NCBI RefSeq assembly: GCF_030684315.1 | Contig: NC_081369.1 | Span: 12,748,035-12,812,034 of the forward strand | Direction: 5' to 3' | Source of the DNA: Stegostoma tigrinum | Taxonomy: Eukaryota | Length of the DNA stretch: 64,000 nucleotides | Shown here: in pieces, positions 3,376 through 61,224 of the stretch | How the letters are laid out: each line of letters starts with the position of its first letter | Numbering within the stretch: position 1 is the first letter of the stretch | Made by a program: the position numbers and the translations under genes | Notes under the pieces: model-generated | What the model was told of the DNA's origin: nothing | The model's input: only the letters and a program-made list of their open reading frames with translations | Databases searched by the model: none

Positions 3376-3560
3376 GAACAAAAACAGAAGTTGCCAGAAA
3401 AGCACAGTGGGTCTGGCAGCATTTTTGAAGAATGTTCTGAGTAAGGGTCACCCGACCCAAAACATTTTAACTCTGATTTTCCTTCAGATGCTGCCAGATC
3501 TGCTGAGCTTTTGCAGCAACTTCTGTTTTTGTTCTTGATTTACAGCAGCTGCAGTTATTT
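3376..3560. mobile_element. Fold-back mini-element with a degenerate central hammerhead
   Basis: Inverted arms at 3376-3422 and 3488-3534; centre CTGAGTA-AGGGTCACCCGACCC-AAAAC. Confidence 0.75.
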
Positions 3561-5097: not shown

Positions 5098-5321
5098 CCG
5101 GTTCTTCCTCTCACCCATCCCTTCCTCCCACCCCCAGCCGCACCCCCAGCTACCTACTAACCTCATCCCACCTCCTTGACCTGTCCGTCTTCCCTGGACT
5201 GACCTATCCCCTCCCTACCTCCCCACCTACACCCTCTCCACCTATCTTCTTTGCTCTCCATCTTCGGTCCGCCTCCCCCTCTCTCCCTATTTATTCCAGT
5301 TCCCTCCCCCCATCCCCCTCT

Positions 5322-5349
5322 CTGAAGAAGGGTCTAGGCCCGAAACGTC
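5322..5349 (+). ncRNA. Minimal type I hammerhead ribozyme motif, core intact
   Basis: CTGAAGA-AGGGTCTAGGCCC-GAAAC-GTC: CUGANGA and GAAA boxes, a pairable stem II and a GUC cleavage triplet. Located in the PLE 3' region, where such motifs are known. Confidence 0.8.
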
Positions 5350-6754: not shown

Positions 6755-6891
6755 AAAACTGCAGATGCTGTAAATCAGGAACAAAAACAAAGTTGCTAGA
6801 AAAGCTCAGCAGGTCTGGCAGCATCTGTGAAGGGAAAAACAGAGTTAATGTTTCGGGTCCAGTGATCATTCCTCAGTACAATTCTGAGGAA
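6755..6891 (-). mobile_element. Mini-element of the same family as 3376-3560
   Basis: Minus-strand CTGAGGA...GGACCC-GAAAC at 6847-6876, followed by the start of an inverted arm (ctgagga at 6884-6890). Confidence 0.75.
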
Positions 6892-7239
6892 GAACCAAAA
6901 AAACCGAAAGAACAGATTTCTTTCCTCTGGCATCAATGACCATCTTTCAATGCAATAAGAGCATAATTGTTACTCAATCTGACTAGGCCACATTCAAATT
7001 ACCTGATCTGCACTCTAAACTCAGCCATTTTATTGATATTTTGATATTGAGAGGAGTAGGCAAGGTGATGTCCTGTGTCAGGCAGTCAGCATCACAATAC
7101 AGCAGATGAGGTAAGGACCCTTGCCAGAAAGCAGACAGGCCAGCTGTAGACCGAGTGGGATTCAAGACGTAAGGATACCGTTTTTTAGTCTATATTTAAG
7201 AAAGAATAAGGGTAAACTAAAACTATATCCTATTAGGTT

Positions 7240-11497: not shown

Positions 11498-12935
11498 GAG
11501 TCACAGATATACAGCACAGAAACAGACCCTTTGTTCCAACTCATTCATGCTGAGGTTTCCCAAACTAAACTAAACTAATCCCATGTGCCTGCATTTGGCC
11601 TAATCCCTCTAAACATTTCCTATTCATCAACTTGTCCAAATGCCCTTTAAATATTGTAACTGTACCTGGATTTACCATTTCCTCTGGCAGTTCATTCCAC
11701 AGACAAACCAATCAATCCACAAACCACCCTCAGGTCCCTTTTAAAAATTTTTAAGATGAAAGGAGAAAGAATGTCCTCTCGTCTTGAAACTGCCCACCCT
11801 TGGGAAAAGACCTTTGCTATTCACCCTATTTATATCTCTCAACATGGTAAACCACTATAAAGGTCAGCCCTCAACCTCCCACGCTTCAATGAAAGAAGTC
11901 CCAGCCAATCCAGCCTCCTCTGATAGCTCAAATCCTCCATTCCTGGCAAAATCCAGGTAAATCTTTTCAGAAGCCTCTGCAACTTAATCATTGCAGGGCA
12001 ACCAGAACTGTACACACTACTCTAAAAGTGATCTTACCAAACTCCTGTACAACCTTAAAATGACATCCCAACTCCTGTACTCAATGGTCTGACAATGAAG
12101 GCAAGCATGTTAAACACCTTCTTAAGCACCCTATCTATCTGTGATGCAACTTGCAAAGAATCAGGTACCTGAACCCCTGGGACACACTGTTCTACAACAG
12201 TACCCAGGGTCCTACCATTAACTGTACAAACCCTGCCCTTGTTTGTTTTACCAAAATACAGTAACCTCATTTATTCAAATTAAACTCCATCTGGCACTCC
12301 TCAAACCACAGACTCAACAGATCAAGATTTCTTTGTAATCTTAGATAAGCTTCTTCCCTGTCCACTATACCACCCATTTTGGTCCCATCCACAAACCTAC
12401 TAACCATGCCTTCTGAATTCTCATCCATATCATTTATATAAATGACAAACAAAACTGGACCCACTGCCGAATGCTGCAGAACACCGTTGGTCACAGGACT
12501 CCAGTCTGAGAACCAACCCTCCATCACCACCCCGTCTACTACTGTCAAACCAATTTTGCATCCAATTGGCAAGCTGTCCCACTTGATTTAACTCTACTAA
12601 TTAGTGTACCGTGCAGAACCTTCTCAAAGGCTTTACTAAACATGTAGATAACATCTACCACTTTGTCCTCAATCTTTTTGACTAAGTCCTCAAAAAAATG
12701 TAATCAAGTTTGTATGATATGATTTCCCATACACAAAGTCATGCTGACAATCTCCAATCAGTTCTTGCCTTTCCAAATGCATGTAGATCCTCTCTCGGGA
12801 TCCCCTGCAACAACTTAGCCACCACTGACATCAGAATCAGTCTGTAGTTTCCTGGCTTCTCCTTACAGCCTTTCTTAAATAAAGGCACAATATTAGCCAC
12901 CAACCCTCTTTAGTCCTCTGGCACCTCCCCTATGG
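11498..12935 (-). mobile_element. CR1 LINE 3' part
   Basis: ORFs 12267-12572 (GPVLFVIYINDMD..SRFVDGTK..QMEFNLNK) and 12055-12270. Confidence 0.85.
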
Positions 12936-20371: not shown

Positions 20372-20526
20372 GCAAAGTACTGGAAAAGCTCAGCAAATCT
20401 GGCAGCATCTGTAGGGAAACAAACAGTTAACGCTGAGTCCAGTTCTGATAAAGGTTCATCAGACTCACTGTTAACTCTGCTTTTCTCTCCACAAATGCTG
20501 CCATGTCTGCTGAGTTTCTCTAGCAT
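20372..20526. mobile_element. Older fold-back mini-element
   Basis: Arms tggaaaagctcagcaaatctggcagcat and atgctgccatgtctgctgagtttctcta, with a central degenerate CTGATAA. Confidence 0.7.
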
Positions 20527-25303: not shown

Positions 25304-26028
25304 TAGGAAGGAAAGTATGCTGTGTAAATGATATAACAAGGATGCAAAGTGATATAAATAAGTTGACAGACAACACAAGAAAATCTGGCAGATGTGACAG
25401 GACGTGAAGTTGTTCACTTTGGTAGTAAGAAGAATAGAACAGTATTATTTAAAAGCAGTTCTGCTACAGAATTCTAAGGTACTGAGGGGATCAAGTTTTC
25501 TAGTGCACGAGTCACAAACAACATTCAGTATAGCAAGTGATTAAGGTGGTTAATGTAATGCTTTTTTAAAAACAAAAGAAATTGAACACAGAAGCAAGGA
25601 TAACAGTGTGGAGCTGGATGAACACAGCAGGCCAAGCAGCATCTCAGGAGCACAAAATCTGACGTTTTGGGCCTAGGCCCTTCAGAGAGGGGGATGGGAA
25701 GAGGGGTCTGAAATAAATAGGGAGAGAGGGGGAGACGAACCGAAGATGGAGAGGAAAGAAGATAGGTGGAGAGGAGAGTATAGGTGGGGAGGTAGGGAGG
25801 GGATAGGTCAGTCCAGGGAAGACGGACAGGTCAAGGAGGCTGGATAAGGTTAGTAGGTAGGAAATGGAGATGCGGCTTGAGGTGGGAGGAGGGGATAGGT
25901 GAGAGGAAGAACAGGTTAGGGAGGCAGGAATGAGCTGGTCTGGTTTTGGGATGCAGTGGGGGGAGGGGACGAGCTGGGTTGGTTTTGGGATGCAGTGGGG
26001 GGAGGGGACGAGCTGGGCTGGTTTTGGG

Positions 26029-28354
26029 AACCCAGACCCCTGCCGAATCTTCACCATCCCCCCCCAGACCTCCCACTGACCGAGGACGAACCGTCAGTCC
26101 TAAGCAAGGGGCTCACCTTTGTCCCCCTCCACCTGCACATCAACGAATACCAGTCACGTTTGGACATCAAGCAGTTTTTCCGCTGCCTTCGCCTCCACGC
26201 TTACTTCTTTAACCGGGAGCCTAACCCTCCCTCCACTGACCCCTTCACCCGCCTCCAATGCAAGTCCTCCTCCTGGACACCACCCCCGGGCCTCCTACCC
26301 TCCCTCAACCATCTCCAACTGCCGTCGAGACATCAACTGCCTCAACCTCTCCACCCCTCTCTCCCACTCCAACCTCTCCCCCGCAGAACGGACAGCCCTC
26401 CGCTCCAACCCCAACCTCACCATCAAACGCGCAGACAAGGGAGGCGCAGTGGTAGTATGGCGCACTGACCTCTACATCGCCGAGGCCAAACACCAACTCT
26501 CCAACACCACCTCCTATCGCCCCCTTGATCATGTCCGCACCTCCGAGCGCCAAACCATCATCTCCAATACCATCCATGACCTCATCACCTTAGGGGACCT
26601 CCCACCCACAGCCTCCAACCTTATTGTTCCCCTACCCTGCATGGCCCGTTTCTATCTCCTTCCCAAAATCCACAAAGCCGCCTGCCCTGGTCGACTTATC
26701 GTCTCAGCCTGCTCTTGCCCCTCCGAACTCATCTCCACCTATCTGGGCTCAATTTTCTCTCCCTTGGTCCACGAACTCCCCACCTACCAAACGCCACCTC
26801 TTCCTCCGTAAATAGATGACTGTATCGGCGTCGCCTCTTGCTCCCCAGAGCAGCTCAAACAGTCCATCCACTTCACCAACACGTTCCATCCCAACCTCAC
26901 GCCCTCCACCTCCTCCAGAACTTCCAATTCCCTGGCCCCCAACACCTCATTTTCACCATGGACGTCCAGTCCCTATACACCTGTATTCCTCATGCAGATG
27001 GCCTCAAGGCCCTCCGCTTCTTCCTGTCCCGCATGCCTGACCAGTCACCCTCCACTGACACCCTCATCTGCCTAGCCAAACACGTCCTCACCCTCAACAG
27101 CTTCTCTTTTGCTTCCTCCCACTTCCTACAGACAAAGGGGGTGGCCGTGGGTACCCGCATGGGCCCAAGCAATGCCTGCCTCTTTGTAGGTTACGTGGAA
27201 CAGTCGCTCTTCCGCACCTACACAGTCCCCAAACGCCAGCTCTTCCTCCGTTACATTGATGACTGTATTGGCGCCGCCTCTTGCTCCCCAGAGCAGCTCA
27301 AACAGTTCATCCACTTCACCAACACCTTTCACCCCAACCTTCAGTTCACCTGGGCCATCTCTAACACATCCCTCACCTTCCTGGACACCTCAGTTTCCAT
27401 CTCAGGTAACCAGCTAGAAACTGACGTCCGTTTCAAGCCCAACAACTCCCACAGCTACCTGGAATACACCTCCTCCCACCCACCCTCCTGCAAAAATTCC
27501 ATCCCTTATTCCCAATTCCTTCACATCCACTGCATCTGCTCCCAGAATGAGGCATTGCACTCCCGCACATCCCAGATGTCCATGTTCTTCAAGGACTGCA
27601 ACTTTCCCCCCACAGTGGTCGAGAACACCCTTGACCGCGTCTCCCGCAACATATCCCTCACACCCCGCCCCCGTAACAACCGCCCGAAGAGGATTCCCCT
27701 CGTCCTCACATACCACCCCACCAACCTCCAGATACAACGCATCATCCTCCGACACTTCCGCCATCTACAATCCGACCCCACCACCCAAGACATTTTTCCA
27801 TCCCCACCCTTGTCTGCCTTCCGGAGAGACCACTCTCAGTGACTCCCTTGTCCACTCCACACTCCCCTCCAATCCCACCACACCCGGCACCTTCCCCTGC
27901 AACCGCAGGAAGTGCTAACTTGCCCCCACATCGTCTCCCTCACTCCCCTCCCAGGCCCCAAGATGACTTCCATATTAAGCAGATGTTCACCTGCTCATCT
28001 GCCAATGTGGTATACTGTATCCACTGTACCCAGTGTGGCTTCCTCTACATTGGGGAAACCAAGTGGAGGCTCAGGGACCGCTTTGCAGAACACCTCCACA
28101 AGGTTTGCAATAAACAAATGCACCTCCCAGTCGCGAACCATTTTAACTCCCCCTCCCATTCTTTAGATGACATGTCCATCATGGGCCTCCTGCAGTGCCA
28201 CAATGATGCCACCCGAAGGTTGCAGGAACAGCAACTCATATTCCACTTGGGAACCCTGCAGTCCAATGGTATCAATGTGGGCTTCACAAGCTTCAAAATC
28301 TCCACTTCGCCCAGTGCATCCCAAAACCAGCCCAGCTTGTCCCCGCCTCCCTAA
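26029..28354 (+). pseudogene. Disrupted PLE RT/GIY-YIG ORF
   Basis: Overlapping ORFs 25956-26468, 26119-26811, 26838-27842 and 27839-28354 join into one polyprotein through several frameshifts. Confidence 0.9.
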
Positions 28355-28569
28355 CCTGTTCTTCCTCTCACCTATCCCCTCCTCCCACCTCAAGCCGCAC
28401 CTCCATTTCCTACCTGCTAACCTCATCCCGCCTCCTTGACCTGTCAGTCTTCCCTGGACTGACCTATCCCCTCCCTACCTCCCCACCACCTCTCTCCTTT
28501 TCTCTCCATCTTCGGTCTGCCTCCCCCTCTCTCCCTATTTATTCCAGAACCCTCTCCCCCGCCCCTTCT

Positions 28570-28597
28570 CTGACGGAGGGTCTAGGCCCGAAACGTC
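28570..28597 (+). ncRNA. Hammerhead motif, one core substitution (CTGACGG)
   Basis: CTGACGG-AGGGTCTAGGCCC-GAAAC-GTC. Confidence 0.6.
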
Positions 28598-28784
28598 AGC
28601 TTTTGTGCGCCTGTGATGCTGCTTGGCCTGCTGTGTTCATCCAGCTCTACACTTCGATATCTTGGATTCTCCAGCATCTGCAGTTCCCATTATCACAGAA
28701 GCAAGGATGATATATTCACGTTATACAGGACATTGCCAAGACCACAGCAATGACCACAACAATTGCTGAGGCCACCGCAATTTA

Positions 28785-31364: not shown

Positions 31365-32360
31365 TAGAGTCAAAGAGCGTGGAAACAGACCTTTGGTCCA
31401 ACTTGTTCATGCTGATCAAGTTTCCTAAACTAAACTAGTCCCATTTGCCTGCGTTTGGTACATATCCCTTCTGACCTTTCCAATTCATTAACTTATCCAA
31501 ATGTCTTTTAAATGTTGTAACTTCACCTGCATCTACCACTTCCTCTGGCAGTTCATTCCACATACGAACCACCCCCTGCATAAAGTTGCTCTTCAGGTCC
31601 CTTTTTAAAAATCATTCTCCTCTCACCTTAAAAATCTGTCCCCTAGTTTTGAATTCTATCCTAGGGGAAACCCTTGCCATTTACCTTACCTACGCCCCTC
31701 ATTGCTGTAAACATCTATAAAAGGTTACCCCTCAACTTCCTACGCTCCGGTCAAGGAAGTCTAAGCCAATCCGGCCTCTCCTTATAACTCAAATCCAGTC
31801 CCGGTAACATCTTTGCAAATCTTCTCTGCACATTGTCTAATTTAATAATATCCTTGGTATAGCAGAAATGGACAAAGTACTCCAAAAGTGGCCTCCCCAA
31901 CAGCCTCCACAACCAAAACATAACACCTGTACTCCTATACTCAATGATCTGAGCAATGGAGGCAAGCATGCCAAGTCTTTTTTACCACCCTATCGACACA
32001 ACTTTCAACAAACCTGAAATACCTGAACCCCTACATCTTTTTGATAACACCCCCCGGAGCCTACCATTAACTGTACAAGTCCTGCCTTATTCGTCTTACC
32101 AAGTGTTCATCTAAATTAATCTAATCAAGTTCCCTTGAAAATCTTAGATAATCTCTACATTGCCGACTATACAGCCAATTTTGGTGTCATCACAAACTTA
32201 CTGATCAAATTTCCTATGTTCTCAGCTGAATCATTTTTGTAAGTAACAAACAAGTAGACCCAGCACAGATCCTTGCAAACACTGCTGGTCACAGACCTCC
32301 AGTCCGAAAAACAACCCTCGCCCTCTGTCTACCACTGTCAAGCTAATTTTGTATCCAATC
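31365..32360 (-). mobile_element. CR1 LINE 3' part
   Basis: ORF 31751-31969 contains IEYRSTGVMFWLWRLLGRPLLEY; the tail matches 11498-11750. Confidence 0.85.
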
Positions 32361-34108
32361 TAATCGCTCCTTGTTTTTAGTCTGCAAACCTTTTGGTGTA
32401 TCACTTTTCCACTACTTTATGGCCGACACACACACACAGTAGCATACCAGTATATGTACTGTTTTTTCTTTTACAACCCCAGCCGACGACAATACTGCAC
32501 AAGTCAGATCTTTGAGATCAATTATTTTCTATTGTGAAGGACTTCATTTCCTATCACCTCTTTTTTGAACACTTGTATGGCCCGCAATGTTGAATTTCAA
32601 TTGGCTTTTATCCCCCAAGCATGGATTCAGGTACTGCCAGCACTGCAATATCCCATGTGACCATTCCTCAACTCAACAATTTTACACTGCAGCATAGATT
32701 TTCACTTCAACACAGAAATATGAAATGGTGCTATTTTGACAAGAATTGAGAGACAGTATGAACTGAAATGGCATGATGTTAAGAGTGCAGGGTGGGGGTA
32801 ACACTTTGCTGTAATTTTCATACATTGATAAAGTGCAGGGCAAGTCAGAAGGCAGCCAGAGAGAAAGAGAATATTAAAGTGAGCAAAATTGTGCTAAATC
32901 TTTGTAAACACTGGCTAGCTCTCAGGTACCCAATTCCAGATAACAGCTTGAATCAGGATGTCAAGACCTGGACAGGATGCAGAACAGGTGTAATATAGCT
33001 GTTCATAGAAATAAGGCAATCATAGCATCAAGCAAGCAGGATGGGGACTTCATACTCAGGGATTTCAGTCTGCGTAGAGATTAAAGAAGTTATGATTGTT
33101 CTTCGAGCACATATCAAGATGACGTGATAAGTTGTTCAGAATCATGATTTTACTCTTGAAAAATCCAAGTTTTAATTTGCATGCTCCTATATTCTGAGTT
33201 CTGTCAGAGGAAATAAAATAGAATAAAACCATGAAGTTTAATCATTTTAATCACCCTTTCAGTTATTTTATCTCAGAGTAAAAGTTTACGTGAACTGTCT
33301 TCAATATAAAAGTTTTAAGTCCTATTTTCACTTTCTTAAAAATCTGCTTAGATTTTCAGGGGCTCTTCTTCCACTATAATTAGCCCGTTTGTTAGGTAAC
33401 ATGTAGTGTCCTTACCTTCTGAATTAGTTTTTCTAAGATCTCCTTCTAGGAAGATATGATGAAGTGAATGCCAAAGGGCTGCAAGGCAAATTACTAGTTA
33501 ATCTATTGAGGGATAAGTTTAAGCAGAATTGCAGACATTCTGCATGTCTCCTTGAAACTGCTGTGAGGTCACTGAAATCAACTCAACCAAGTAAATGAGG
33601 CACCGGTTCAACATATCATCTGAAAAGAGTTCGGTAAAAACTTAAGAACAAATCTCATTTCTCTGCTAAACATCCTGCAATTTGATCAAAATATCTTGAC
33701 CATACCAATATTAACTTTCACAAATTGAGCTCAACTCACATTTATCGCCAGGTTTTAAATACAGCAATGTTGTTATTCAATAGAAATATCAGCTACATCA
33801 TGACATTTCTAATCTCCCTCTGAATTTATAATTTCAATGTGTCTGTGCTTCCTTCTTCTCAGTTTCTGATGCTGTTGACATACTTGTCACCTGTTTCTCA
33901 GTTGCAAAGAATGACCCTAAATTGACTTCGTTTCTCTACATATCCTAACTGAGTTGTATGCTTCCAGTTTTTCCTTAGGTTTTGTTTCAGTTCTCTCTTC
34001 AGAATGCTTATGCCGTGGCGTAATGTAGCTGCTCAGAGAAACAAGGCTATCAAATCATCAAGCAAGCAGGATGGGAAGTCCATACCTACCATAACAGTAA
34101 TAATTCAT

Positions 34109-35805
34109 GAATTGGGGAGGGGAAGGGGATTCTGAAATAAATAGGGAGAAAGGGCTAGGCAGACAGAAGAAGGATAAAGGAGAAGATAGGTGGAGAGGAG
34201 ACAGACAGGTCAAGGAGGCAGGCTTGGAGCCATTAAAGGTGAGTGTAGGTGTTGAGTTAGGGAGGGGATCGGTCGATCCAGGGAGGAAAGACAGGTCCAG
34301 GAAGCGGGATGAGGCTAGTAGGTAGGAGATGGGGGTGAGGTTTGAGGTGGGGGGGGGGGGGGGGGGGGGGGTGGGGAGTGGATTGGTGAGTGGACAGGTT
34401 AGGGAGCTGGATACGAGCTGGGCTGGTTTTGGAACACGGTCGGGGGAGGGGAGGAGATTTTGAAACTTGTGAAGTCCACATTGATACCATTGGGCTGCAG
34501 GGTTCCCAAGTGAAATATGAGATGTTGTCCCTGCAACCTGCAGGTGGAATTGTTGTGGCACTGCAGGAGGCCCAGGACGGGCATGTTGTTCAAGGAGTGG
34601 GAGGCGGAGTTGAAATGGTTTGCAACTAGTAGGTGCAGTTGTTTGTTGCGAACCTGTCACAGGTGTTCGACAAAGCAGTCCTCGTTTTTCAAGGACCATA
34701 ACTTCCCCTCCACAGTGGGCAAAAACACCCTCAACCGTGTCTCACATCTCCTGCAACTCACCCCTCACATCCGATCCCCGCAATAATAACCAAAACAGAA
34801 TCCCCCTTGTCCAACCTCCGGATCCAACGCACCATCCTCCAACACTTGCGCCATCTGCAATCCGATCCCACTACTAAAGACATTTTTCCCTCCCAACCCT
34901 TATCTGCTTTCCGGAGGGACCACTCTCTCCGGGACTCCCTTGTCCGCTCCGCACTCCCCACCACCCTCGGCACTTTTCCCTGCAACTGCAGGAAGTGCTA
35001 CATCTGTCCCTACGCCTACCCCTCAGCCCCATCCCAGGCCCTAAGATGATCTTTCACATCAAACAGATGTTCACCTGCACATCTGCTAACGTGGTATACT
35101 GTATCCGCTGTTCCCAATGTGGCCTCCTCTACATCAGGGAAACCAAACAGAGGCTTGAAGACCGCTTTATGGAACACTTATGATTGGTTCGCAACAAACA
35201 ACTGCATCTCCCAGTCATGAAGCATTTCAACTCCCCCTCCCACTCCTCGAACGACATGTCCATCCTGGGCCTCCTGCAGTGCCACAACGTTGCCAGCTGA
35301 AGGTTGCAGGAACAGCATCTCATAGTTCGCTCGGGAACCCTGCTGCCTAATGGTATCAATGTGGACTTCACAAGTTTCAAAATCTCCTCCCCTCCTCCGA
35401 CCGCATCCCACAACCAGCCCAGATCGTATCTGCCTCCTTAACCTGTCCTCCCACCAATCCACTCCTTCCACCTCAAGCCCCACCCCCATCTCCTACCTAC
35501 TAGCCTCATCCCACCTCACGGACCTGTCCATCCACACTGGATCAACCTATGCCCTCCCTAATTCCCCACCTATACTCACTTTTACTGGCTCCAAGCCTGC
35601 CTTTGACCTGTCTGTCTCCTCTCCACCTATCTTCTCTCCACCTCCCCCTTTCTCCCTATTTATTTCGGAACCCCCTTCCCCTCCCCCATTTCTGAAGAAG
35701 GGTCCAGACAAGAAATGTCAGCTTTCCTGCTCCTCTGCCTGCTGTGTTCATCCAGCCCTACATCTTATCTCAGATTCTCCACCATCAGCAGTTCCTACTA
35801 TCTCT
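34109..35805 (+). mobile_element. PLE with inverted 5' arm (34109-34680 minus; about 34678-35805 plus)
   Basis: Both arms match the GIY-YIG/pLTR region. Degenerate TSD cagtaa(taa)ttcat at about 34095-34108 and 35810-35820. Degenerate hammerhead at 35692-35719. Confidence 0.9.
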
Positions 35806-36654
35806 GTAGCAGTAATTCATACTCTGGACAGCCACCAGCACAATCATGTCAAGTGTACCTAGAGCTGGGGCCTCATGAATGTGCTTTTCCTGACCTCTAG
35901 CTCACATGCAATGAACGCAACGTTTCTGCCATTTGTCGTCTTCATCATTGATTTTCCACAGACGTGAACGTGAATTTGCACACCACACACTCCTGCGCAC
36001 TACGAATCCTATGTCCTTACAACCTTCTCCTTTACTTTCACAGCTTACAGGTGCTCATACCCATGGGGAAGACCAGATTCTGTGGTTCCTGCTTCCTTGC
36101 TTCAACTAAGGATCCATCATTATACTGACTACAATCACATAATAATACTCTTCTCCGTGTGGTGTGACTCTGCTCTAGAGTAAATTCCAGATATGCTATA
36201 TGCTTAGCAGTCTTTTTAAACTTGTACTTCATTTTAGTGATTCAGAACTGGAGTGACTCGAGAGTTATTTCCTCTGAAGTATCCATCTGGGACACTGACT
36301 GCAGATTCGAACATTTACTCACAAAAATTATTCTATTTTGTAATATGAGAGCAAAGAGGCACAGAAGTAGGAAAGGTTACTCCAGCTCATGTTCTGACAT
36401 AAGATTTGATCAGATAGATTCAGTTAGGATTTCTTTTAGACTACTTTATGGTTCAGTTAATTGAGTACAAAACAAAAATTGAGTAAGGTAATAATTTCAG
36501 GGTCCTGGTTATTTATTTTGTTCAAAATTTAAATCAAAATGGACAAGTGTTAAAGGAAGAATAAATACTCTTCTGGCTTTCTTAATTTGCTTAGCTGTAC
36601 CTACCCCGGCATTAAAATTTCCACATACCACATTCTTGTTTAAAAATTGGAAAG

Positions 36655-36795: not shown

Positions 36796-36831
36796 ATACT
36801 GCAGAAGTGCTGGTATAGGGCTGGGGTGGAC

Positions 36832-37006
36832 AAAGTCGTAAGTCACATGATACCAGGGTGTAGTCCAACAGGTTTATTTGATATCAACCTTTTGGAGTCC
36901 TGCTCCTTCATCAGATGACTTCATCTGAAGAAGCAGTGCTTTGAAAGCTTGAGATTTCAAATAAACCTGTTGGGCTACAACCTGGTGTCGTGCGACTTCT
37001 GACTTT
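36832..37006. mobile_element. Palindromic 175-bp element with back-to-back hammerhead motifs (second family)
   Basis: Arms aaagtc...aacaggtttatttga and tcaaataaacctgtt...gacttt. Plus strand CTGAAGA-AGCAGTGCTTT-GAAA-GCTT (36925-36950); minus strand CTGATGA-AGGAGCAGGACTCC-AAAA-GGTT (36886-36914). Confidence 0.8.
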
Positions 37007-38399
37007 AAACAGCAACATGACAAGAACGCAATATATTTTTTCAATAGAGGGATAAGTACCGGCCAAGTCACTGGGAACAACTTTCCGGATGGGACACAAG
37101 AATGAAAAAGAGCGAAGCTGTATGCATTTAGCATATAAGCAAAAACATTATTTTTGGAGCCTGAAAAAAAGGGGGCTTTTTTTGCTAGCTTGACTTACTG
37201 CATTTTATGTTAATTGTTTCAATTTGCTGATAGAGGTTATGGAATGTTGCTATTAAAAGCAAGTTCACACTGATTTTGGAATGAAACTTGTTCAAATTTA
37301 AACACAACAGTGCCAACAGAAGACACCACACATCAGGGTTTCACTTCTCTGACATATGCCTTTCTGAAATAAACAGAAAATGCTGGCAATACTCTTCTCC
37401 AAGTCATACATTAGCTGCAAGCAGCACAGGAGTGTTACAGTTTGCCTTAAACTGTGTGCCTTCAAAGGACAATGCAATATTAACATTGGAAATGAAAAAA
37501 TATTTGGTGAAATCTTTGATGTGACATTCACACTTCAATCATGTCTTTTATCTATGCTATATACATGCTTTCTGCTAGTGAAATACAAGATGTAGGCAGA
37601 TGCGTTCTAGGAAAACAGCTAAAGTTCCAGGACTTGTCCCCTTCAGAACAACATTCTATTTGTCCATAATGAAACCGCAAGTAATAATGGTAACATTATA
37701 ATTCTCAAAGGAAAGTGAAGGAACTCACATCAAGAATACTTTACAATAGCTCTCAATGTTGTTGAAACTGTTACAATCTAACATTTAGTAAAAGGTTTTA
37801 TGAATATTGTCATTATTCTAGACTATTCTAATTACCTTCAAACAATTAACATGTGGACAACAAAAGGAAGATCAATAATCACAGCATAATCAATATAAGG
37901 ACTTTTTTTGCTGGAGCACACCGGGAACAAAATACAGTCAGTTGCATACTACCTACTGACACCTGAGGTAACTGCAAACTCAATTTAGCCTATCACCTGA
38001 AGTTTCTCATCAGTTTCCTCTCAATCAAAATTTCTCTACTTAATTAGCTGGAGAAAGTGTTTGGGCAAGAGTTTTGCTTCTATACAGAAAATTTGTCAAG
38101 ACTTTTGTGCAAGAAAATCCCTTTTAAGAAAAGGAAAGCTATATTTTGCTGGACTCAAGCTACAGGTCAGCTGACCTGCACTTCTGTCCTCATGACTTCC
38201 TGTACACCGTGGTCAGCCTCCAACTGCCTGCACAGTTGCCAGCTGTCAGTAAATTTTCCATACAATACCTTAATGTCTATACAGACTACTGTTCAGATTA
38301 TTCAGTCCATTTATCTCAATCTTTCTCTAACATCACACCTCCATCACATCAGTCCAATTTTATTCAAGTTATAAGAATCAGTTTAGCTTGAAAGAGGAC

Positions 38400-38800: not shown

Positions 38801-40715
38801 TAGTCGAGTAAGCACACTATTTTTGAAAGAGTCATTCTTACCTCCCTTGAGGTCTCTCGAGTCCAGAAAAGCCAGCCAACAGCAAAACAAAAAAACCTCT
38901 TCAATCTTTTAGGCACATCAAGAGCCCATCTACCCCCCAACAGGTTAGCTTCCAGAGGTTAAACCTGAAATGGGTGCAATGAGATTCGGTTTCTAATTTT
39001 AAATGAACTTATTCTGTTCACTAAAATTTCTCTGCCCTTTCCCAAGTAAGACTGAAGAATAGATTACACAATCATTTCAGATTGTTAGATGCATGAGAAA
39101 TTACAAGTTCTTGGTTGACTAAAAAGGTTTAAACAATAAACTGCAGAAATCTCGTCTAAATAATACACTTTTACATAAATGGAAGTCATTTGCAGCAATG
39201 AAATTAATATGTTCAATTTCAATATTTAGTTTAGAAATTAAAGACATCAATTTCCATAGCACCGCTCAAGAGATTAGGCCACTCCAAAGCTAAAATACCT
39301 TGGTTACCAGTACTTTTGCTTCTAACGTATGCACAAATTCAGTCGTGCAAACAAATTTATGCCTGTTCTTTAGCATTAAGCTCTCTTAAAATGCTTAGTT
39401 ACACAACATATGAATTATAGCTGACAGAGCAAAATGCTAACACTTGCCAGATGCCGTTTCTTGATCCATGGCAACTGGTCAACCTTGGGCTCCTGCATGA
39501 CCACATCTTAAATCCTTTCTCTCTTCTTACAACTCAAAATCTTGCTTTTATCTTCATGAAGTGTGTTTCTGGTTTTGGTAGGAAGGTAGCAGTTGTAACC
39601 ATGCCCTCCCACAGCTTCTGTAATTGGAGACCATGAATCAGTGCAGTCACAGCAACGTCCAGCAAATCCACACCAACAGGAAATGGCAGAGACCACAGAC
39701 AACTCGTCTGCCCTCCCCCAAATCATAAATCCCCAAAAGAGTCTTTCAGAGATCTGCATTCCGACGTAGAAACCAAGCTCTGACTCATCGTTCTTGCACA
39801 GTCACATGAATCTGACTATTCATCTACTAACAGACCACAACTATTTTCACTGCATCCTACACTGTTCCCACCTGCTCCTGACTCATTGGAGTCATCAGGA
39901 AGTTCGAGGAAGGAGGAGGAAAGTGTACTTTAACATCATGTACACTTCAAGATTGCTTTAAATTAGCTAAACATGACACAGATATACAGGACTAAGTGGA
40001 ATTGTTCCAGGTCTAAGGACCGCAAGAAAAAGAAGCACGCTAAATCCATCACAAGTGAAACCTCTAAGCTTAGGATAGGCCAGAACTTGCATCAAGCACT
40101 ACGTTTTCTCCTCCATAGATACCTTATCAAGCTGGTCAGAATGTACAGTAAGCTAAATAGACTTAGTCCACAGAAGATTTCTTCTGCCCTTTGCTGGAGT
40201 AATACCTAGTCCCAAAGATCTTTTGCAACATCTGATTAGGTTTATTTTCTGTTTGTTGGATTTTTGAGCTGCCACTCCAGATTTCTTCTCCAGTAAGGAA
40301 GGGAAAATATTACCCTGGGATCTGCTTTATCAGCAGCTGGTACTAGACAAAGTGGCTACTGTACAACAGGAAAGCGTGGCAGTTCCGAGCCAAAGTACAA
40401 GGAGTTGGGAAGGAAGGGGAAAAAACTCACATCTTGCAGACTCCAGTGATGAACATAGTTTTCACTCACCAGGACCTCTATCTGAAGGCAAACCAAGTAA
40501 AATTAAATTTTCTTAATGGAAACATACAGAAAATAATTGGTGATATTAAAAAAAAGGGATAGAGAAAAAGGTAGAGTGAAAGGGTAAACAGTAGAAAACA
40601 GAAGATCAAGAGACAGTGAGGAAGTAGAAATAAGTGACCAAAAAACAATTAAAAATGCACCTCAGAAAAAAAAAATTCCATCTGAAAGGTTGGGAGCATG
40701 AAGCTAAATATGCAG

Positions 40716-40808
40716 AGATAGTAGGAACCGCCTGTGCTGGAGTCTGAGATAACCAGCTGTGGAGTTGGATGAGCACAGCCGGCCAGGCAGCAGAGGAGCA
40801 GGAAAGCT
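40716..40808 (-). mobile_element. About 90-bp PLE 3'-end insertion
   Basis: Matches the pLTR tail. 15-bp TSD aagctaaatatgcag at 40701-40715 and 40804-40818. Confidence 0.88.
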
Positions 40809-42279
40809 AAATATGCAGTTCCATTGTTTAACCAAAAGACTTTATAGCTGGACAAGAGAGCTTGTAAATTATTCAAAATTAACAGGAAGTCCTCAGCATG
40901 CCAGACACCATTTATCCTTGAATTACTGACTGTTTTTGTGAGACTTTGCTCCGTGCAAAGAGTCTGCCATATTTCCCAACTAAGTTCACTTCCAATAACA
41001 GTCTATTGGCTGTAAAACTTTGGAACATCATTAGAATTTATTAGATTGCTTCACTATTAACAAGATTACATTTTATAGTGTTTCAGGAGATCTTATCACC
41101 ATCGCTACATGGCCTAACAGCCAGAGACGTACAACTGTAATAAGGTCAGGTATGGCAACAGGCAGAACTGAGGTAGCTTTTATTTAATAACACGAGAGAC
41201 AGACTGCACATTGTTGAAAAAGGTCTCAAATGATGAATGCCTGCTTGAAGAGGGACTGGAAGGGTATTGTCACTTGTGGGACTGTAGCCTCTACAGGCAC
41301 TGTACATTTTTCAACAATGTGCAGTCTCTCTCATTTGTGTTATTAAATAAAAGCCACCCAAGATCTGCCTATTTGCATACCCAAATTCATTATTATTGTA
41401 TATGTCTGGCTCTTATGCCATATTTGACCTCCCATATTGTAGGTGTATTGGAACAGTTTGATTAAGGGCACAGCTGGAATAGTCCTCAGTATAGAAAGAA
41501 AGAAACAGGATGTTGTCACGTCCCACAACCTCTTCCGTAACAAAATAAAGAGTGCCTGAGGAACTCAGCAGGTCTGGCAACATCTCTGAACAAAGCTATG
41601 TTTCAAATTCAATTCCACTCTTCAGAATTCAGATTTCCAACATACACAGTGTCTTTGTTTTTGATGTATTTTTACTTTCTGGTAACATGTTCTTTCAGCC
41701 GTTTTCTCTGTATCACGGAGGGAATCAAACCAGCTAAAATCAGACATCTGCAATGCTGGGGACTCGGGTGGAGATGGTTCAACCCACTTGGCATTTCAAG
41801 CTGAAGAGGATTCCAAATGTTTCAGCTCTTTCTTTTGCAGTAAGATGCTAGGCTCAACCCCTCATTATCATTTACAGCTGGATTTGACAGTTGATATGGG
41901 AATCATTCCACTGCATCTATCATGTGCTGCTTCACTGTTCATCATGGATGTATTTCTGCTGTAACTGCACCAGGTCAGCACTTCTTTATTGGCAAGCCAG
42001 GTGCTGCTCCTAGCATACTCTCCTACTTGTTGAATCAGAGATACTTTCTTGGTTTAATGGTAATTACAGAGGGAAAAGATATGCTGGGTCCTGAAATTAA
42101 AGGCTATGGTTGAATAAGATCTGCAGTAGATGGCCTACAATACCCCACAGATACTCAGTTTTGAGTTCCTCGATGTGTTCTAAATTTTGATCCATTTAGC
42201 ACAATGGCACAGGGCCCACAGTGTGATGCTAGGACTTTGTTTCCAAGAAAGACTCTGAGGAGAGTAGGGTGCATCTGTG

Positions 42280-47838: not shown

Positions 47839-48928
47839 TGTTATGATCCAAGATGATATTACCTCAAACTATAATCCTGGATAAGACCATTATATTTACT
47901 GGTCATTAACGAGATCAAATTTCAGAATTGTTAACTCCTGGACTTCAAACTTTAAGTTTTTAAAAACAAAATAAACTTCACTTTAGAGATAATGGGAACT
48001 GCAGATGCTGGCGAATCCGAGATAACAAAGCGTGGAGCTGAATGAACACAGCAGGTCAAGCAGCATCTTAGGAGCACAAAAGCTGACGTTTTGGGCCTAG
48101 ATCCTTCTTCAGAAAGGTCTAGGCCCGAAATGTCAGCTTTTGTGCTCCTACGATGCTGCTTGGCCTGCTGTGTTCATCCAGCTCCACGCTTTGTTATCTA
48201 TAAACTTCACTTTACAAAGTTTAAGTAGAAACAATGCATCCCCTATAATAGCACAACTTGTATTCCAACATCCAGAATTAACATGAACTAACAAACTTTG
48301 GTTGAAGCCTTCACAAGAGCATTTCAAAACAACAGACATGGTTAGGATAGATCTCAGATTTCTTAGCAATAAACCCTGAGATTAGTAACAATGAGTCACC
48401 AAAAATCATTAAAACTTTGCCTTCTTAACAAACGATAGTAAATCTTCATGTTTGATGAGGTAGCCTCAGAGCTTCCTCAAAATCATTCTGACCCAAAATG
48501 CTACAGTAACCCGGTAGTTGAATCCCTCCTTCAATGACAAAATTTTCTAGGATTTCCCACAAGTATTTAATGACTGATACAATTCCAACTTTTTAACCAA
48601 GTAACTAGCTTCACCAAGCCACTGCGGCTTATAGTGTTATTTTAAATTTGTCTAGTAAGCAGCTCTTTAGTAGAGCTGCTGTGCAACTCCATTGAACTGT
48701 TAAGAGCTCTGATGTTAACGTGCACTTTGCCACCTGACAGCAGCACTTTAATAGTCTGGAGACCCTTGCCTGCCTCTCACTAGCTCACTGACTAAAAGTG
48801 ACTGACTCTTGAACTCATCTAGGTGACTTATCAAAAACCTTCCAACCCCTACTACTGAGCAAGGGAGCAACAAAGATTGTGTAGCTTAAACATTAGAATC
48901 TTCACAGGTGCCAGAATTCATCAAAACA
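47839..48928. mobile_element. Possible solo LTR hosting the 47986 mini-element
   Basis: TGTTATGAT...ATCAAAACA termini; flanks agtt/agct would be a 4-bp TSD with one mismatch. Confidence 0.35.
47986..48199. mobile_element. Fold-back PLE-derived mini-element with hammerhead motifs
   Basis: About 85-bp near-perfect inverted arms. Perfect 15-bp TSD ataaacttcacttta at 47971-47985 and 48200-48214. Confidence 0.92.
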
Positions 48929-50920: not shown

Positions 50921-53165
50921 GTATTTTCTTTGGACCAAAATGTGCCTGGCTATGTTGTGCTATTACTTTAAGTGCATCTGATCTTCAAGCATTCTGCACA
51001 GAACAAGTGCAAATGACCATTTTTCACCAGACATGTGAAGGATTGTTTCTGTTAAAGAGAAGGAACACAAAATAGTTATCACAGAGCTATTAACAGAAAT
51101 AAAGCTACAAGTAAATTTAGCAAAAACATGGTTTCAAAGTTTAGAAAAGTGATTTCCCAAGGCAAGACAATGAAAAAGAAAGTGAACTAATCTTTCATCC
51201 TGTCTCCTAGTTACATTCAGGATTCCTAACAACCACATGAACCAAGTGAAAATCCTTCGAAATGTTTCTCTTATAGGAAACTTGTAGTTGCACGTTAAAA
51301 AAAGTTAACATGGTAAACAGTGACATTTGGAACAACTTATCCAGTTTTTCAGCTTCAATAACATAAAGATAGAGACGGACTGGTTGCAAATATGAAAATA
51401 CATGTTGGTAGCTCTTCAAAGTCCTGATGCATTGACAATGCAGTAAATTGCCTGAAATGTTTACGATCTGATGGGGCAATCACTCAGCCCGAGGAACTCT
51501 CCAATAAAGACTCTTCAACTTGGGCTGGAGCTGAAGATTCGGAAGAATTCAGATGATTTAGTTTAAAAAAGTAGCAAAAGTAAAACCTGCTCAATAACAA
51601 AATTAACAAACCAATCACTCACAATAAACCATCCCTCCATGGCAACTGACCTAGAGGCATCCCTCCCTGACCATCACAGCAGACACCAAATACACACTGT
51701 GTACACCTGAGCACCCCAGCTACCTGACACTTGTGCTGCGGATGTATTCCTCCCACAGTCAGAGCTTTCACCCCTCTGCCATGAATACCCCAACCACACA
51801 GAAACCTAAACTCCAACACGAATTGCCTCACACTGCAAGCCGCCTTGCCCAACTTGTTGACTCCCACCTCTAACTGCCTACCTTACGAACTTAGGACACA
51901 GCATTCTTTCTTATTCACCTGCACAAAAAAAACACCATACATATGCCTGAACCCTAACACCCTGACAGCAGAATCCTGACCCCACAGTGATATCTTCCCT
52001 TAGCCAAAGCAGACTCCAGACACCATTGTAACCGAATTTAATCTTAAAAAAAAAACTTCCCTGTCCCTCCCCACATTCAACTTGTGGGTATATTCTAGCC
52101 TAAAGTAGAAATATTCACATTTACGAGCACTGACATCAGTTTGTCAGCTATGCCTACTCATTAGTCTATAAACATGTCTAATTTTATGCCATCTATGTCA
52201 TTTATTACCATCTGATCAATGTGTCAAATTTGAGAAGGTGGTATTCTGTTCAAATATTAAATTGCTAACGATCATGACGCTATTTGGTCTGCAGCGTGGA
52301 AGTCTAAAACAAGAAATCTTTTTGGGTGATGGGAAGTCAACTAATTTTAAAACTTACTTCAATGTAGACACCGAAATTATTTTTGGATGAAGAACACAAA
52401 TTTTCAGTTATTTGGACTGTACCACAATCTTACCTAAGTGCGCTATAATTACATTATTAACCTCTCCACCTTATTGAAGGACACTGGTAATACACAACAG
52501 TCCCTTTTGTTCAGACAAATGAAAGTTCAGCAAGGCACCTTTTCTCCCAATTCCAGCAGCTGCCATAAACATTTTAGCTATGAAAAGCATTTAGAATAAA
52601 TACCATTCCCGTTCCAAGGTGCGCTCCATGACTAAAACTGCAGTTTCAGTATTTGATGAGTGCAAGAAGAATCCTAACACCTGCAAAAAAAGTCAATCCA
52701 ATTAAATTCTTAGTCAGTAGCAACCATTAACACCTCATTTTTCGCCATTGCCCATTTCAATCAAACAACATCACCTTTGTTTTATATTCTGAAGGATTTG
52801 CTCTTTACTCATAAGTAGGTAGGCATAGAAATCAAACTAAATTTGCAACTTGATGAAATACGTAAACACAGAATTCGCATATTTTTCGATTTTTTTTAAT
52901 TGAAAACTGGGTAATAAGAATTGGCTAACATCCTGGTCTTTAACCACAGTACTGAACTGACTTTGGTAATTTGTTTTCATGACCAGGGCTGCTTACAAAT
53001 ATATTCTGACCAGGAACATAACAACTGAAAATGCACTCAGTTTGTTCTCTCAGCACTTTCTGGAAAGACCAAAGGACAGGCTTTACTGAATTGTATATTA
53101 GGACAGGATTAATTCATGATGGTTGAAAAATGTTCTGGCCCAAACAGGGTCTTCAAAGAGGTGGT

Positions 53166-53292
53166 AAGAACTGCTGATGCTGGAGTCAGAGATAATACAC
53201 TGTGGAGCTGGAGGAACACAGCAGGCCAGGCAGCAGAGGAGCAGGAAACCTGACGTTTAGGGTCAGGACCCTTCTTCAGTTCCATACTCTCA
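53166..53292 (-). mobile_element. Short PLE 3'-end insertion with a hammerhead motif
   Basis: 16-bp TSD tcttcaaagaggtggt at 53150-53165 and 53293-53308. Minus-strand CTGAAGA-AGGGTCCTGACCC-TAAAC-GTC at 53252-53279. Confidence 0.88.
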
Positions 53293-54360
53293 TCTTCAAA
53301 GAGGTGGTTGAGTTCCTAGGCATGCTGGTGTTAATTGCTCAAAATTTGTCAAGAGTCAGGAAATGTTCCATCAGACTGGAATGGAGCAACAACAGCCCCT
53401 CATTTTTTAGGGGTGGGGGATAGTTGGGTGCAGAAAGCAGGAAACAATGGGGTAGTTAGCTTGAATTACGTCATTGGAAATGTAGTACAATGAATCACTA
53501 AAAAAATATGCTTTTAACTGTGCACCGTCCAGTAAAGGAACCCTGGAAGAGTCAGCAAAAGGAAAATTATGTTTAACTGATTTGCTGCAAATCTCTGAAG
53601 GAGTATTCTGCTCTCTGGATAAATGGGAGCTTAATGTATTGTACTTGGAATTCCGGGAGGCATTTGATTTGGTTCTACATGCAAGGTTAATACATAAAAC
53701 AGTAGTTCATGTTGTATGGATATACTGGCCTAAACAAAAAATGAAGCGATAGTGCAGTGGTAGTTTCACCAGGCTGGTGTTCCCAGAACATCAGGTTGGA
53801 TTACAAGCTTGAATCCCACCATGGGAGATGGTGAAACCTGGATTCAATTTAAAAGAACTGAATTAGAAAGCCATCCTAACACCGACCATGAAACCACTGT
53901 CAAATTTCATAAAACTCATCAGGTTCACTAATGTCCTGTAAGGGAAGAAATCTGCCACCTTTGTGGTGACTAAATTTGCAGAAAATACAATGATACATAG
54001 CAAAATATGTTGCGACGAGGGCATAGTCTGCATCCTTGTTATGTGGGTAAGAGTGAGTGAGAGCTAGATGGTGATTTTATTCAAGTACAAGATCATGAAT
54101 GGCCTTAACAACATGCTTGTCAAAAGGGCATTTACTCTCGTGGGCAAGTCCTGAGCTAAAGCTAAAATTAGGAGGTGCCTTTTTAGGGCAGATAAGGGGA
54201 ATATTTTCCCTTGTAGGGTTGAGGGACTTTGGACCTTCTGTCTGGTGGAGGAAACAGCATCTCTGATTATTTTTAAGGTGGAGGTAGGTAGCTTCGTGTT
54301 AGGCCAGGGAATCGAAGGTTTTGGGAATAGTGGGATATCTGAAACACAGAGATCACCACG
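53293..54360 (+). mobile_element. Decayed CR1 fragments
   Basis: KGKLCLTDLLQ and LYLEFREAFD motifs. Confidence 0.6.
53745..53965 (+). mobile_element. tRNA-derived SINE nested in CR1
   Basis: tagtgcagtggtag head and ttgaatcccaccatgg B-box-like motif. Confidence 0.65.
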
Positions 54361-56577: not shown

Positions 56578-56800
56578 AAGATAGCAAGGTGTAGAGCTGG
56601 ATGAACACAGCAGGCCAAGCGGCTTCAGAGGAGCAGGAAGGCTGACGTTTCAAGCCGAGACCATTCTTCAGAAAGCTTTTCAGATAAGATTTTCTGAAGG
56701 GTCTAGGCCCGAAATGTCAGCCTTCTTGCTCTGTTCATCCAGCTCTACACTTTGTTATCTCAGATTCTCCAGCATCTGCAGTTCCTCAACTACTACCTCC
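56578..56800. mobile_element. Fold-back PLE-derived mini-element with hammerhead motifs on both strands
   Basis: Inverted arms. Minus-strand CTGAAGA-ATGGTCTCGGCTT-GAAAC-GTC at 56644-56671; degenerate plus-strand motif from 56694. Degenerate TSD tcaacattccattt / tcagcatttcattt. Confidence 0.85.
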
Positions 56801-58544: not shown

Positions 58545-58752
58545 ATTGAAAATGCTGGAAAATCAGAAATAAAACAAAATTCTTGACAAACACAGCAGGT
58601 CTGGCATTACAAGTGGGAGAGAAAGAGAGTTATTAAGTCCAGCATGACTCTTCTTTGGAACCAGTTCCTCCCCAGTAATTTAATCTCAGCTTGAAAGAAG
58701 GATGATACTAACTTGAAATGTTAACTGTTTTTCTCTCCACAGATGCTGCCAA
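58545..58752. mobile_element. Older fold-back mini-element, degenerate
   Basis: cagcaggtctggca...gagaaagagagtt versus aactgtttttctctccacagatgctgcc. Confidence 0.55.
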
Positions 58753-59865
58753 GTAATTTGAGGAATTCTGAAAACTTTTATAAAATCTTTAACTTTTGTA
58801 GTGACTTCAGGAAGTGGTGCTTTATTTCCAATAGGTTACACCAAACTTAAGGCACAATAGCTGCTCATGTTGCAATTAAAAGCCTCCTCTTTAACGAAAC
58901 TAGCAGACCTCTGTCAAAGTTTACAAATGAAGTAAAAGTTAAGAGTGCTTCCAAACTGTCCATATAGTGAAATTTTATGGCATAGAAACAGACCATTTAG
59001 TCCAGCCATCCTATACCAGTCTTTATATTTCCCACAAGTTTCAGCATACTGTCAACACATCTTTGTATTCCTATCTCCCTCACTTACTTATCTAATTTTC
59101 TCTGAAATTTGTGCTCTTTCAATTATTCCTTACAGTAGTAGATTGCACATTCTAATTATTCTAGACTTAAACTTTTTCCCAACTTTCTTATTGAATTTTA
59201 CTAGCTTTTTAATAATTATAGCCACAAACTGTGGTGTTGCTCCATAGCAGAACTGTTTTCAACAATGTAAACCCTGTCAAAACCTTTCATTGCCTTAGCC
59301 TCTATCAGGCCATTTTTCTAGAGGGGAGCCCAAACTTAGTAGTTACCACAGCAAAGGATTTGTATAATTTTTTTCATGTAAAAGATTTCCAGTATTTCTC
59401 TATTTTCAAACATAAAGACCAGAAATATCTATAACATTCCAAAGTATGGACCAAAACTTTTTAAATCAGCTTTGGTCACTTTATTAAAAAGCAGAAGGTG
59501 CTACAAATAATGAACTTGGATGAATTACTTCGGACTGATAACCAAATTGGAAGGCAGAATTTTATAGCTCTGGAAGCACATGTCCTCGTAAGTGACTTTC
59601 TGAAACATAACTGGTTAATCCCAATTCGCACATTTTTCAAGCATTGTTTATACTTTGATTCTGCTTTTCCTGCTGTTTCTGGGAGGGCTTCCAGGTACTA
59701 ATACTATTCCATGTAAAATACAATTCCCCTCACCTTCACAGTGCTTTATAAATATATTCACAACAGAGTAAATTACTTCCTTATCCTTAAGTCAAACGGA
59801 TATTTTTTCAATGTATGTTCATTTTCCATTAAAGATATTTTCGAATATTGCCACCATTCCAATGT

Positions 59866-59952
59866 CTGAAGAAGGGTTCTGAGTTGAAACGTCAACTTTT
59901 CTGTTCCTCCAATGCTGCCTGGCCTGCTGTGTTCCTCCAGTTCCAGTGTTAT
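59866..59952 (+). mobile_element. 87-bp insertion starting at the hammerhead core
   Basis: CTGAAGA-AGGGTTCTGAGTT-GAAAC-GTC at 59866-59893. TSD caccattcca at 59852-59861 and 59953-59962. Confidence 0.85.
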
Positions 59953-61224
59953 CACCATTCCATGTTGGCTTTACTTACTCAGGTGTTTTGTATAAACCCC
60001 AAATTCCTTCATTCCATAACAGAGAAAAACGTTTTAAATGAGCAAGGCCCCAAACCCTAAATTTCCCATTTCTTTCTTCCTAAATAAACATAGAGTGAAA
60101 TCAAACAGCAATAATTAGCAGGACTGGTTGAAGAAGGTAGCCATGATGTGATGAATTAATAGAGTGGAAAAGAGCACAAAATGCTAAAGTAAATGAAGTT
60201 GGAAGATAAAGTATTACAGTACAAAGTGATTGGAGACAAATCCAAATTGTTGCATGGTTTCATGTTTCCCTGATTGGAGTTACAATCCTACAGATCATTA
60301 CTGTTTTTTGGGAAGGGTGGATTCTGAGGTGGACCCAAGGGCGGGAAGGAAGTTATCACGGGAAGTCCAACACTTTAATCATACAGGTTTGGAAGCTCAA
60401 AAACAAGTCTCATTCTGCTTGATTGTTTCAACAATTAACCACACTTTGCATACAAGAATGTTGACTTATCAAGACAGTCACATCATGAAACCAAGAATAT
60501 AGCTCCTCGAGGCATTTGCATTAACACAAATTTTACATCAAGATATCATCATTTCACTAATTTGCTTTTATTCTTTTATACCCTGAAATTTTATTTATCT
60601 GGGAAGGTCACCTGTTTATTGGTCAATTACTTCACTTCAATATGCTAAAATGAAGCAACAAAAATGACAGTAAACAACTATTAAACATATAACTAAAATA
60701 AAAGGATAATGAAATTTGGAGCTGTAATTCAAAGCAGAAACAAAAGGAAACCAAATAAAATCTAACTAAGTGGATGTGCAAGCCACGTGGAGGCAAGGAC
60801 AGCCTGTCGGATATTGTACTGTACCTACAACTGTTATTTTATGAACTTACAACTGTCACATCAACAAACTACAAAACTTTATTGTCCTAATCTGCTGAAC
60901 AGGAAGGAATAAGTTTTGTTTCAGAAAAAGAGATGGCAACAACATACTGGAAAAATAACTGTTACAAATGGAGACTCATTTCAGTCACTGTATTTGTTTA
61001 CATTCACCATTGATTTCTCCTGCACTGAAAAAAAAACAACACCTTTGGGCAGGTTTTCATATACTCTGTACCACAGTTGAGCCAACCATAGCTCAGAAGC
61101 ATACAAACAAGAGGATTCAATATGACAAATATGATTTGGAGTGCTGAGTGTTTGGCCAGTAGTCTGGTTAAGTGATTAAGTTTTACAATCATACAGGATC
61201 TGATGGGAATTAGAAGGAAAAATA

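Follow-up and report, generated by a model that had tools for sequence, protein, structure and literature searches.

In L1 twin priming, two target ends prime on the element RNA and the cDNAs are joined by microhomology within one target-site duplication (TSD); the second primer anneals internally and inverts sequence without duplicating it. Penelope-like elements (PLEs) of the EN+ type leave an insertion unit with an adjacent inverted 5'-truncated copy, a one-sided tail of 30-40 bp and a TSD (Arkhipova et al. 2013, PMC3846280; Craig et al. 2021, PMC8557442). For metazoan PLEs, minimal hammerheads have been noted in pairs on opposite strands, 100-700 bp from each other, and many single motifs derive from truncated PLEs (Cervera and De la Pena 2014, PMC4209133). 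The PLE protein PAc (Poseidon, Anolis) cuts and extends both target strands; it begins reverse transcription (RT) at two sites, one at each boundary of the tail, and takes uncleaved RNA as template (Frangieh et al. 2024, PMC11167929). Non-LTR retrozymes are head-to-tail tandem units that have an intact hammerhead per unit and are processed to circles (Cervera and De la Pena 2020, PMC7229834; Li et al. 10.64898/2026.07.22.740005). An inverted copy with a one-sided tail and a TSD is therefore already published PLE anatomy. In the literature searched, which included few subscription papers and no supplements, we found neither a fold-back PLE family nor an accumulation of 5' ends at the hammerhead edge; the supplements of PMC11167929, which map insertion ends, may be relevant here.

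In this study, we examine a fold-back unit of 214 bp at positions 47986-48199 of a 64-kb stretch of Stegostoma tigrinum DNA, hereafter the window. The unit is bracketed by exact 15-bp direct repeats on the plus strand (47971-47985 and 48200-48214), with a TSD score of 15 against a maximum of 10 when the same search was run on 150 random position pairs. Inverted PLE 3' ends within a perfect 15-bp TSD, as the initial annotation had described the locus, are thus confirmed. The left arm lies on the minus strand, where 47984-48117 is about 90% identical to 5317-5450, the 3' end of a linear PLE copy; it consists of a 34-bp tail (47986-48019, matching 5415-5450) and a body that runs from hammerhead to tail (48020-48113). 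The right arm (48111-48199, plus strand) matches 5326-5414 and has neither a tail nor the beginning of the hammerhead core. Three nucleotides of microhomology (AGA, 48111-48113) are common to both arms at the inversion junction. The 3' ends of both arms face outward, the left at the outer and the right at the inner edge of the tail, and copies of the PLE family have their 3' end at one or the other of these edges, where loose contig ends pile up (5414 and 5449). The arms had been called two inverted tail copies; inverted PLE ends they are, but unequal ones, since the last 34 bp stand on the left arm only and are unpaired. The paired parts (48020-48108 and 48111-48199) are 89 nt each and differ at 7 positions, two of which are opposite CpG decays, and one of these two removes the hammerhead residue G12.

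As RNA, the hairpin folds at -154.5 kcal/mol (z -22). In repeat annotation, PLE hairpins of this kind are liable to be taken for MITEs, miRNA precursors or retrozymes. An origin as a MITE is ruled out here, given a TSD of 15 bp and arms that derive from PLE 3' ends, and an Rfam match of the hairpin to mir-1949 (E 0.59, 24.7 bits against a cut-off of 100) was put down to chance. Nor is the unit probably purely non-coding, as had been proposed: an ATG at 48066 on the minus strand starts a frame of 27 codons that runs through the tail, as it does in the two longer copies translated. By analogy, this ATG is likely to be a PLE ORF start, because pseudo-LTRs hold first ORF codons in the available account (PMC3846280); no copy in the 64-kb window demonstrates an ORF start at the equivalent ATG.

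The left arm carries a minimal type I hammerhead motif (48112-48085, minus strand), recognized by pattern, in which GAAA has become AAAA; this change, G12A at a CpG site, and one stem II mismatch predict a dead ribozyme. The annotated minus-strand motif is accordingly present, with the mismatch as an addition. The start of the right arm falls inside the core, 4-7 nt from its beginning and immediately ahead of stem II, in agreement with its earlier placement at stem II. Core boxes, stem II, helix III and cleavage triplet were together found at 5322-5349 of the parent-type copy, where the motif is intact by pattern, and on neither arm of 47986-48199. The left-arm hammerhead was probably intact at the time of insertion, because the loss of G12 is a CpG decay. 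An Rfam search of the window returned no match to a hammerhead family. In monomer folds of six stretches, the hammerhead was never the minimum-energy structure and none beat its shuffles, a negative that carries no information because minimal hammerheads work as dimers. In the modeled fold-back transcript of the unit, opening the hammerhead core and stem II costs 24 kcal/mol, and the ribozyme is predicted to be buried there.

The unit is about 90% identical to the 3' ends of two longer PLE copies, 4186-5450 and 26030-28698, which retain remnants of GIY-YIG (E 7e-4) and RVT_1 (E 1.4e-5), both below the Pfam curated cut-offs. The first of these, a 5'-truncated parent-type PLE on the plus strand (4186-5450), has a GIY-YIG domain with a CX4CxxC linker and a CCHH motif, both motifs read in its translation, followed by the hammerhead at 5322-5349 and the tail; it has an 11-bp TSD and no inversion. 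A CX2-5CxxC linker between RT and EN is described as a feature of Neptune/Nematis-type PLEs (PMC8557442, in the part available), and by its motifs the parent is a candidate member of that type. With an RT/GIY-YIG source, an inverted 5'-truncated copy, a one-sided tail in the 30-40-bp range and a TSD, 47986-48199 has the composition of an EN+ PLE insertion unit.

Self-BLAST, profile search and reading yielded 16 PLE inserts from three PLE families in the 64-kb window, 10 of them with an inversion. The layout of 47986-48199 is found at three sizes (214 bp, 1.7 kb and 3.1 kb). The 3.1-kb insertion (25587-28708) has a 15-bp TSD, a tailless inverted arm of about 434 nt, and a forward copy with decayed RT and GIY-YIG followed by the tail. 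In the 1.7-kb inverted insertion (34101-35820), the outer end of the inverted arm (34101-34683) lies at the hammerhead edge and has 4 nt of homology to the flank, resembling internal second priming. A fold-back of a second subfamily (56578-56800) is joined at a different junction, its arms separated by about 15 nt; this spacer region (56675-56694) resembles re-copied first bases of the template, as if RT had slipped at the template end. The second PLE family contributes a fold-back at 3376-3560, whose left arm does not reach the hammerhead (14-bp TSD with 1 mismatch), a tail-bearing arm with an inverted arm of about 11 nt at 6760-6892 (15-bp TSD with 1 mismatch), a decayed fold-back at 20372-20526 and a highly decayed one at 58545-58752. 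In a fold-back of the third family (36806-37008), the hammerhead core start is present on both arms, and at 41536-41660 a tailless inverted arm is followed by the tail alone, an inversion without duplication. Solo arms begin at the hammerhead core at 53150-53308 (minus strand, 16-bp TSD) and, tailless, at 59852-59962 (plus strand, TSD of at least 10 bp); a third (40701-40818, minus strand, 15-bp TSD) has its 5' end at the predicted ribozyme cut site, within the TSD overlap. Second arms of the 10 inverted inserts range from 11 nt (6884) or tail only (41536) up to arms of 434 nt and 580 nt on long copies. Among the 16 inserts tested, 7 besides 47986-48199 have a TSD of 11-16 bp above the random range. 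No such TSD was found at 20372, 58545, 36806, 41536, 30860, 56578 and 34101; the score was 11 at 3376 and 8 at 56578, there was none at 20372 and 58545, and 59852 tied with the random maximum.

Four of these inserts had been listed as similar units. The inserts at 56578-56800, 3376-3560 and 20372-20526 are indeed fold-backs by self-BLAST, which missed 58545-58752, where opposite arms were found by profile search only; but they are not copies of 47986-48199, since 56578 is of a different subfamily, and the remaining three are members of a different PLE family. This bears on a non-autonomous, retrozyme-like fold-back family whose transcripts PLE proteins would insert again in trans as whole units, possibly with multimers or circles as intermediates. 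The unit is short and precise and has a TSD, as such a family would require, and retrozymes derived from pLTRs are reported in vertebrates in the accessible part of 10.64898/2026.07.22.740005. However, the junction sequences of the inverted insertions in the window differ in 10 of 10 cases, so that no junction is common to any two; 47986-48199 is not a tandem array, its ribozyme is predicted to be dead, and freeing the core and stem II inside the hairpin has the energetic cost given above. The arms of each inverted unit, moreover, group by locus and subfamily, and long copies of autonomous type share the layout. We therefore set aside movement as a unit, the second of the two readings offered by the initial annotation, and regard it as quite unlikely. 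The other reading, by which inversion at the ribozyme is a recurrent outcome of insertion, is upheld in a refined form: the hotspot marks where a 5' end falls, at the hammerhead's upstream border, and the second arm of an insert may begin at a different position.

Identical junctions, together with shared diagnostic mutations in both arms, had been suggested as proof of amplification as a unit. The 10 inverted insertions mapped in the window share no junction, and the proof is weaker than claimed because a fixed 5' end and microhomology can yield the same junction independently, without amplification of a unit. Microhomology amounts to 3 nt at the junction of 47986-48199 and to 5 nt (TCAGA) at the 5420 joint in subfamily 2. 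The AGA of the former depends on a CTGAAGA core, which most window copies of the family have; CTGATGA (5326 A>T) is the core in most of the aligned contig depth of this species.

Support in an arm tree was low (32-86), and pairwise distances alone were used to relate the arms. Over 85 shared columns, the arms of 47986-48199 are 7/85 apart, 9-13/85 from three other copies of subfamily 1 and 16-19/85 from the left arm of the fold-back at 56578, whose right arm, partly deleted, lies 6-9/62 from them yet has subfamily-2 states. Two states are common to both arms of 47986-48199 and absent in the two long copies compared. One of them, 5365 G>A, is frequent as a variant in each of the four sequencing runs described below and is therefore a subfamily marker, not private to the unit. 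The arms of the 3.1-kb copy are 11% divergent and differ by two 39-bp repeats, and informative sites (18/17/16) do not group them. This divergence suits two templates; a later deletion is possible.

Fourteen of the 26 window arms begin within -5 to +4 of the hammerhead residue C3, and at least one arm begins at the hammerhead edge in 10 of 11 short inserts; offsets were read by hand and the range was chosen after seeing the data, so that any significance is indicative only. As an independent check, contigs from 4 of 20 runs were aligned to the linear copy (5095-5460), and the best 6 rows per run were taken, with 1473 rows lying outside them and some ends uncounted; depth was not taken as copy number. 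Among the rows listed for two runs of this species, the largest pile of loose ends, with 1399 and 1442 contigs, stands before 5321 and so precedes C3 by one base; the median loose length is 255, and the agreement of 0.37 among these ends indicates that the flanks are unrelated. The 5321 pile is also the largest among the rows listed for runs of two other organisms (359 and 100 contigs). At the 3' side, loose ends of the two runs of this species pile up at 5414 (938 and 928) and 5449 (682 and 716). The upstream edge of the hammerhead is a real hotspot for 5' ends. A splice acceptor at this boundary was considered and rejected, an upstream AG being present in one family only. As for a G derived from a cap, the rows 5352/5318 and 5359/5320 have an extra G at the junction, and the window has no clear case. 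The predicted cut site of the hammerhead (5349/5350) has no pile among the rows listed, and most templates were therefore probably uncleaved, in line with the available part of PMC11167929. One solo copy in the window (40714-40808) and some head-to-tail joints do end at 5349-5350, hinting that cleaved RNA sometimes serves as a template.

These observations lead to our preferred reading, to which we assign a probability of about 0.6: unit 47986-48199 is the dead product of one PLE insertion, in which both nicked strands primed reverse transcription and two short cDNAs were joined head to head. The GIY-YIG endonuclease would nick the two target strands 15 bp apart. One free end would prime at the outer RT start site, giving the tail-bearing arm, and the other at the inner site, giving the tailless arm. 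Both cDNAs would stop near the upstream edge of an uncleaved hammerhead, probably where the template RNA begins; an RT that started in the upstream pseudo-LTR would reach the 5' end of the mRNA, and leave it, after 90-130 nt. The cDNA ends would then anneal through AGA/TCT and be repaired, and later CpG decay would kill the ribozyme. A single primer could give the solo copies, and early joining the tail-only arms. The common 5' stop is most simply the 5' end of the RNA. Penelope of D. virilis has an internal promoter in its pseudo-LTR, a loose analogy because an intron and 46 nt precede the ribozyme region there (PMC2377424, in the part available). The inner site is an independent priming site, as tailless ends also occur in solo copies (59865, and the loose ends at 5414).

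A single cDNA or antisense template could instead have folded back at the quasi-palindrome around the hammerhead core and copied itself, a self-priming proposed by Arkhipova et al. (2013, PMC3846280, where palindromes at inverted junctions are published) that we consider possible but improbable here. The junction of 47986-48199 is near-palindromic, with 2 unpaired bases; it is a native quasi-palindrome, so that it suits snap-back as well and counts in this respect against double priming. The arms of the unit are each other's nearest copies, and the 11-nt second arm at 6884 would fit a stalled fold-back. On the other hand, self-priming leaves unexplained why the second arm ends at the inner tail edge, which solo copies also use, and it is at odds with the differing repeat number of the 3.1-kb arms and with several junctions that have spacers or offsets. 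Tail-only second arms are impossible under it. In the contigs, among the best 15 of 132 rows of joints, with orientation inferred from positions and side lengths, the hammerhead edge is joined head to head with 5358, 5361 and 5420, and also with 5352 and 5359, and the joint 5321/5420 (13, 12, 7 and 2 contigs in the four runs) is an inversion without duplication. Together with the insert at 41536, this last joint favors double priming, as snap-back copying does not give such products. The joint type of 47986-48199 itself (5321 with 5326-5329) is absent from the best 15 of 132 rows, which is not evidence of rarity, because 117 rows lie outside them and contigs can be interrupted at near-perfect palindromes.

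An origin in two steps, in which a first short copy was later joined by another through insertion or recombination, is highly improbable. A PLE endonuclease can cut its own pseudo-LTR according to the available part of PMC11167929, and short copies are very abundant, but one TSD brackets both arms with none at the junction, both arms belong to the same subfamily, and the layout recurs in 10 insertions.

Some observations stand against double priming. Two arms start at neither RT site, the 11-nt second arm at 6884 and the one at 34104. Tail-to-tail joints (5412-5417 with 5446-5450), which the model alone does not predict, are the most frequent among the rows listed (62, 25, 22 and 21 contigs in run X1); there are none among the rows listed for X12 and X14, they were seen in contigs of this species only, and the 5 matches of a search for them in the window are all plain tail ends beside flank. 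Such joints may have arisen when elements inserted at the inner site of older copies or when priming was repeated, or they may stem from tandem fold-back units. The last would give them in abundance, which speaks for the retrozyme-like family considered above, as do the recurrence of some joints in several contigs (5321/5358 with 7, 9, 4 and 0 in the four runs) and the head-to-tail joints among the rows listed (5449->5319, 5446->5322 and 5449->5349/5350). Microhomology alone, however, partly predicts recurrent joints, such as that with the 5-nt TCAGA at 5420. Direct tandem joints of a hammerhead-to-tail monomer of 100-130 nt (5319-5322 / 5418-5449) were also seen (11, 9 and 3 contigs in X1), and are possible seeds of retrozyme-type arrays. 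It is a far-fetched idea, offered as such, that the tail-to-tail joints are tandem fold-back arrays, a subset of which, with hammerheads intact on both strands, replicates through rod-like circular RNA and the PLE RT; if true, this would be a viroid-like, two-polarity retrozyme born from PLE strong-stop cDNAs. Exact-pattern scans of viral contigs and metagenome contigs gave no matches.

The window holds further features. About 420 bp downstream of the unit, a U7 snRNA-like sequence (48632-48683, plus strand) has an Sm-type site and a 3' hairpin; its Rfam score of 29.9 bits lies under the cut-off of 34 (E 0.018), and it is a gene or a retrocopy. A decayed inverted repeat of 313 bp with 67% identity (41109-41421), single in the window and unrelated to the PLE families, is possibly a MITE. 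Another decayed interspersed repeat family is found at 400-888, 9346-9729, 11574-12438 and 31435-31969 (D7, D14, D18).

The locus 47986-48199 is itself debris, with no predicted onward function and most likely dead on arrival. Its sharp 5' boundary and the tail-to-tail joints in the contigs are the parts most worth pursuing. Minimal PLE inserts offer many natural snapshots of how inverted repeats and one-sided tails form, which the published accounts present as an unresolved question.

Compared with the EN+ PLE insertion unit as published, 47986-48199 has the same head-to-head arms, a one-sided tail of 34 bp, a single TSD and a palindrome-like junction, but its forward copy is cut to about 130 nt, so that only two ends are left. 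Its hammerhead resembles those of PMC4209133, as far as described there, in the core boxes, the unpaired base before stem II, the palindromic helix III and the short stem I, and differs from them in being mutated (G12A) and in having the core on one arm only. Like the non-LTR retrozymes of the accounts cited, the unit is short, pLTR-derived and hammerhead-bearing, and has a long TSD; unlike them, it is a single inverted pair with a dead motif and no tandem arrangement. The two RT start sites that bound the tail, the cutting and extension of both strands, the AT-rich target and the dispensability of ribozyme cleavage are shared with PAc, whereas the parent PLE has the CX4CxxC linker of Neptune/Nematis-type elements; in the available part of PMC11167929, the in vitro work did not reconstitute inverted products.

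The proposed reaction also differs from L1 twin priming, in that both PLE primers would use fixed start sites and the arms usually overlap.
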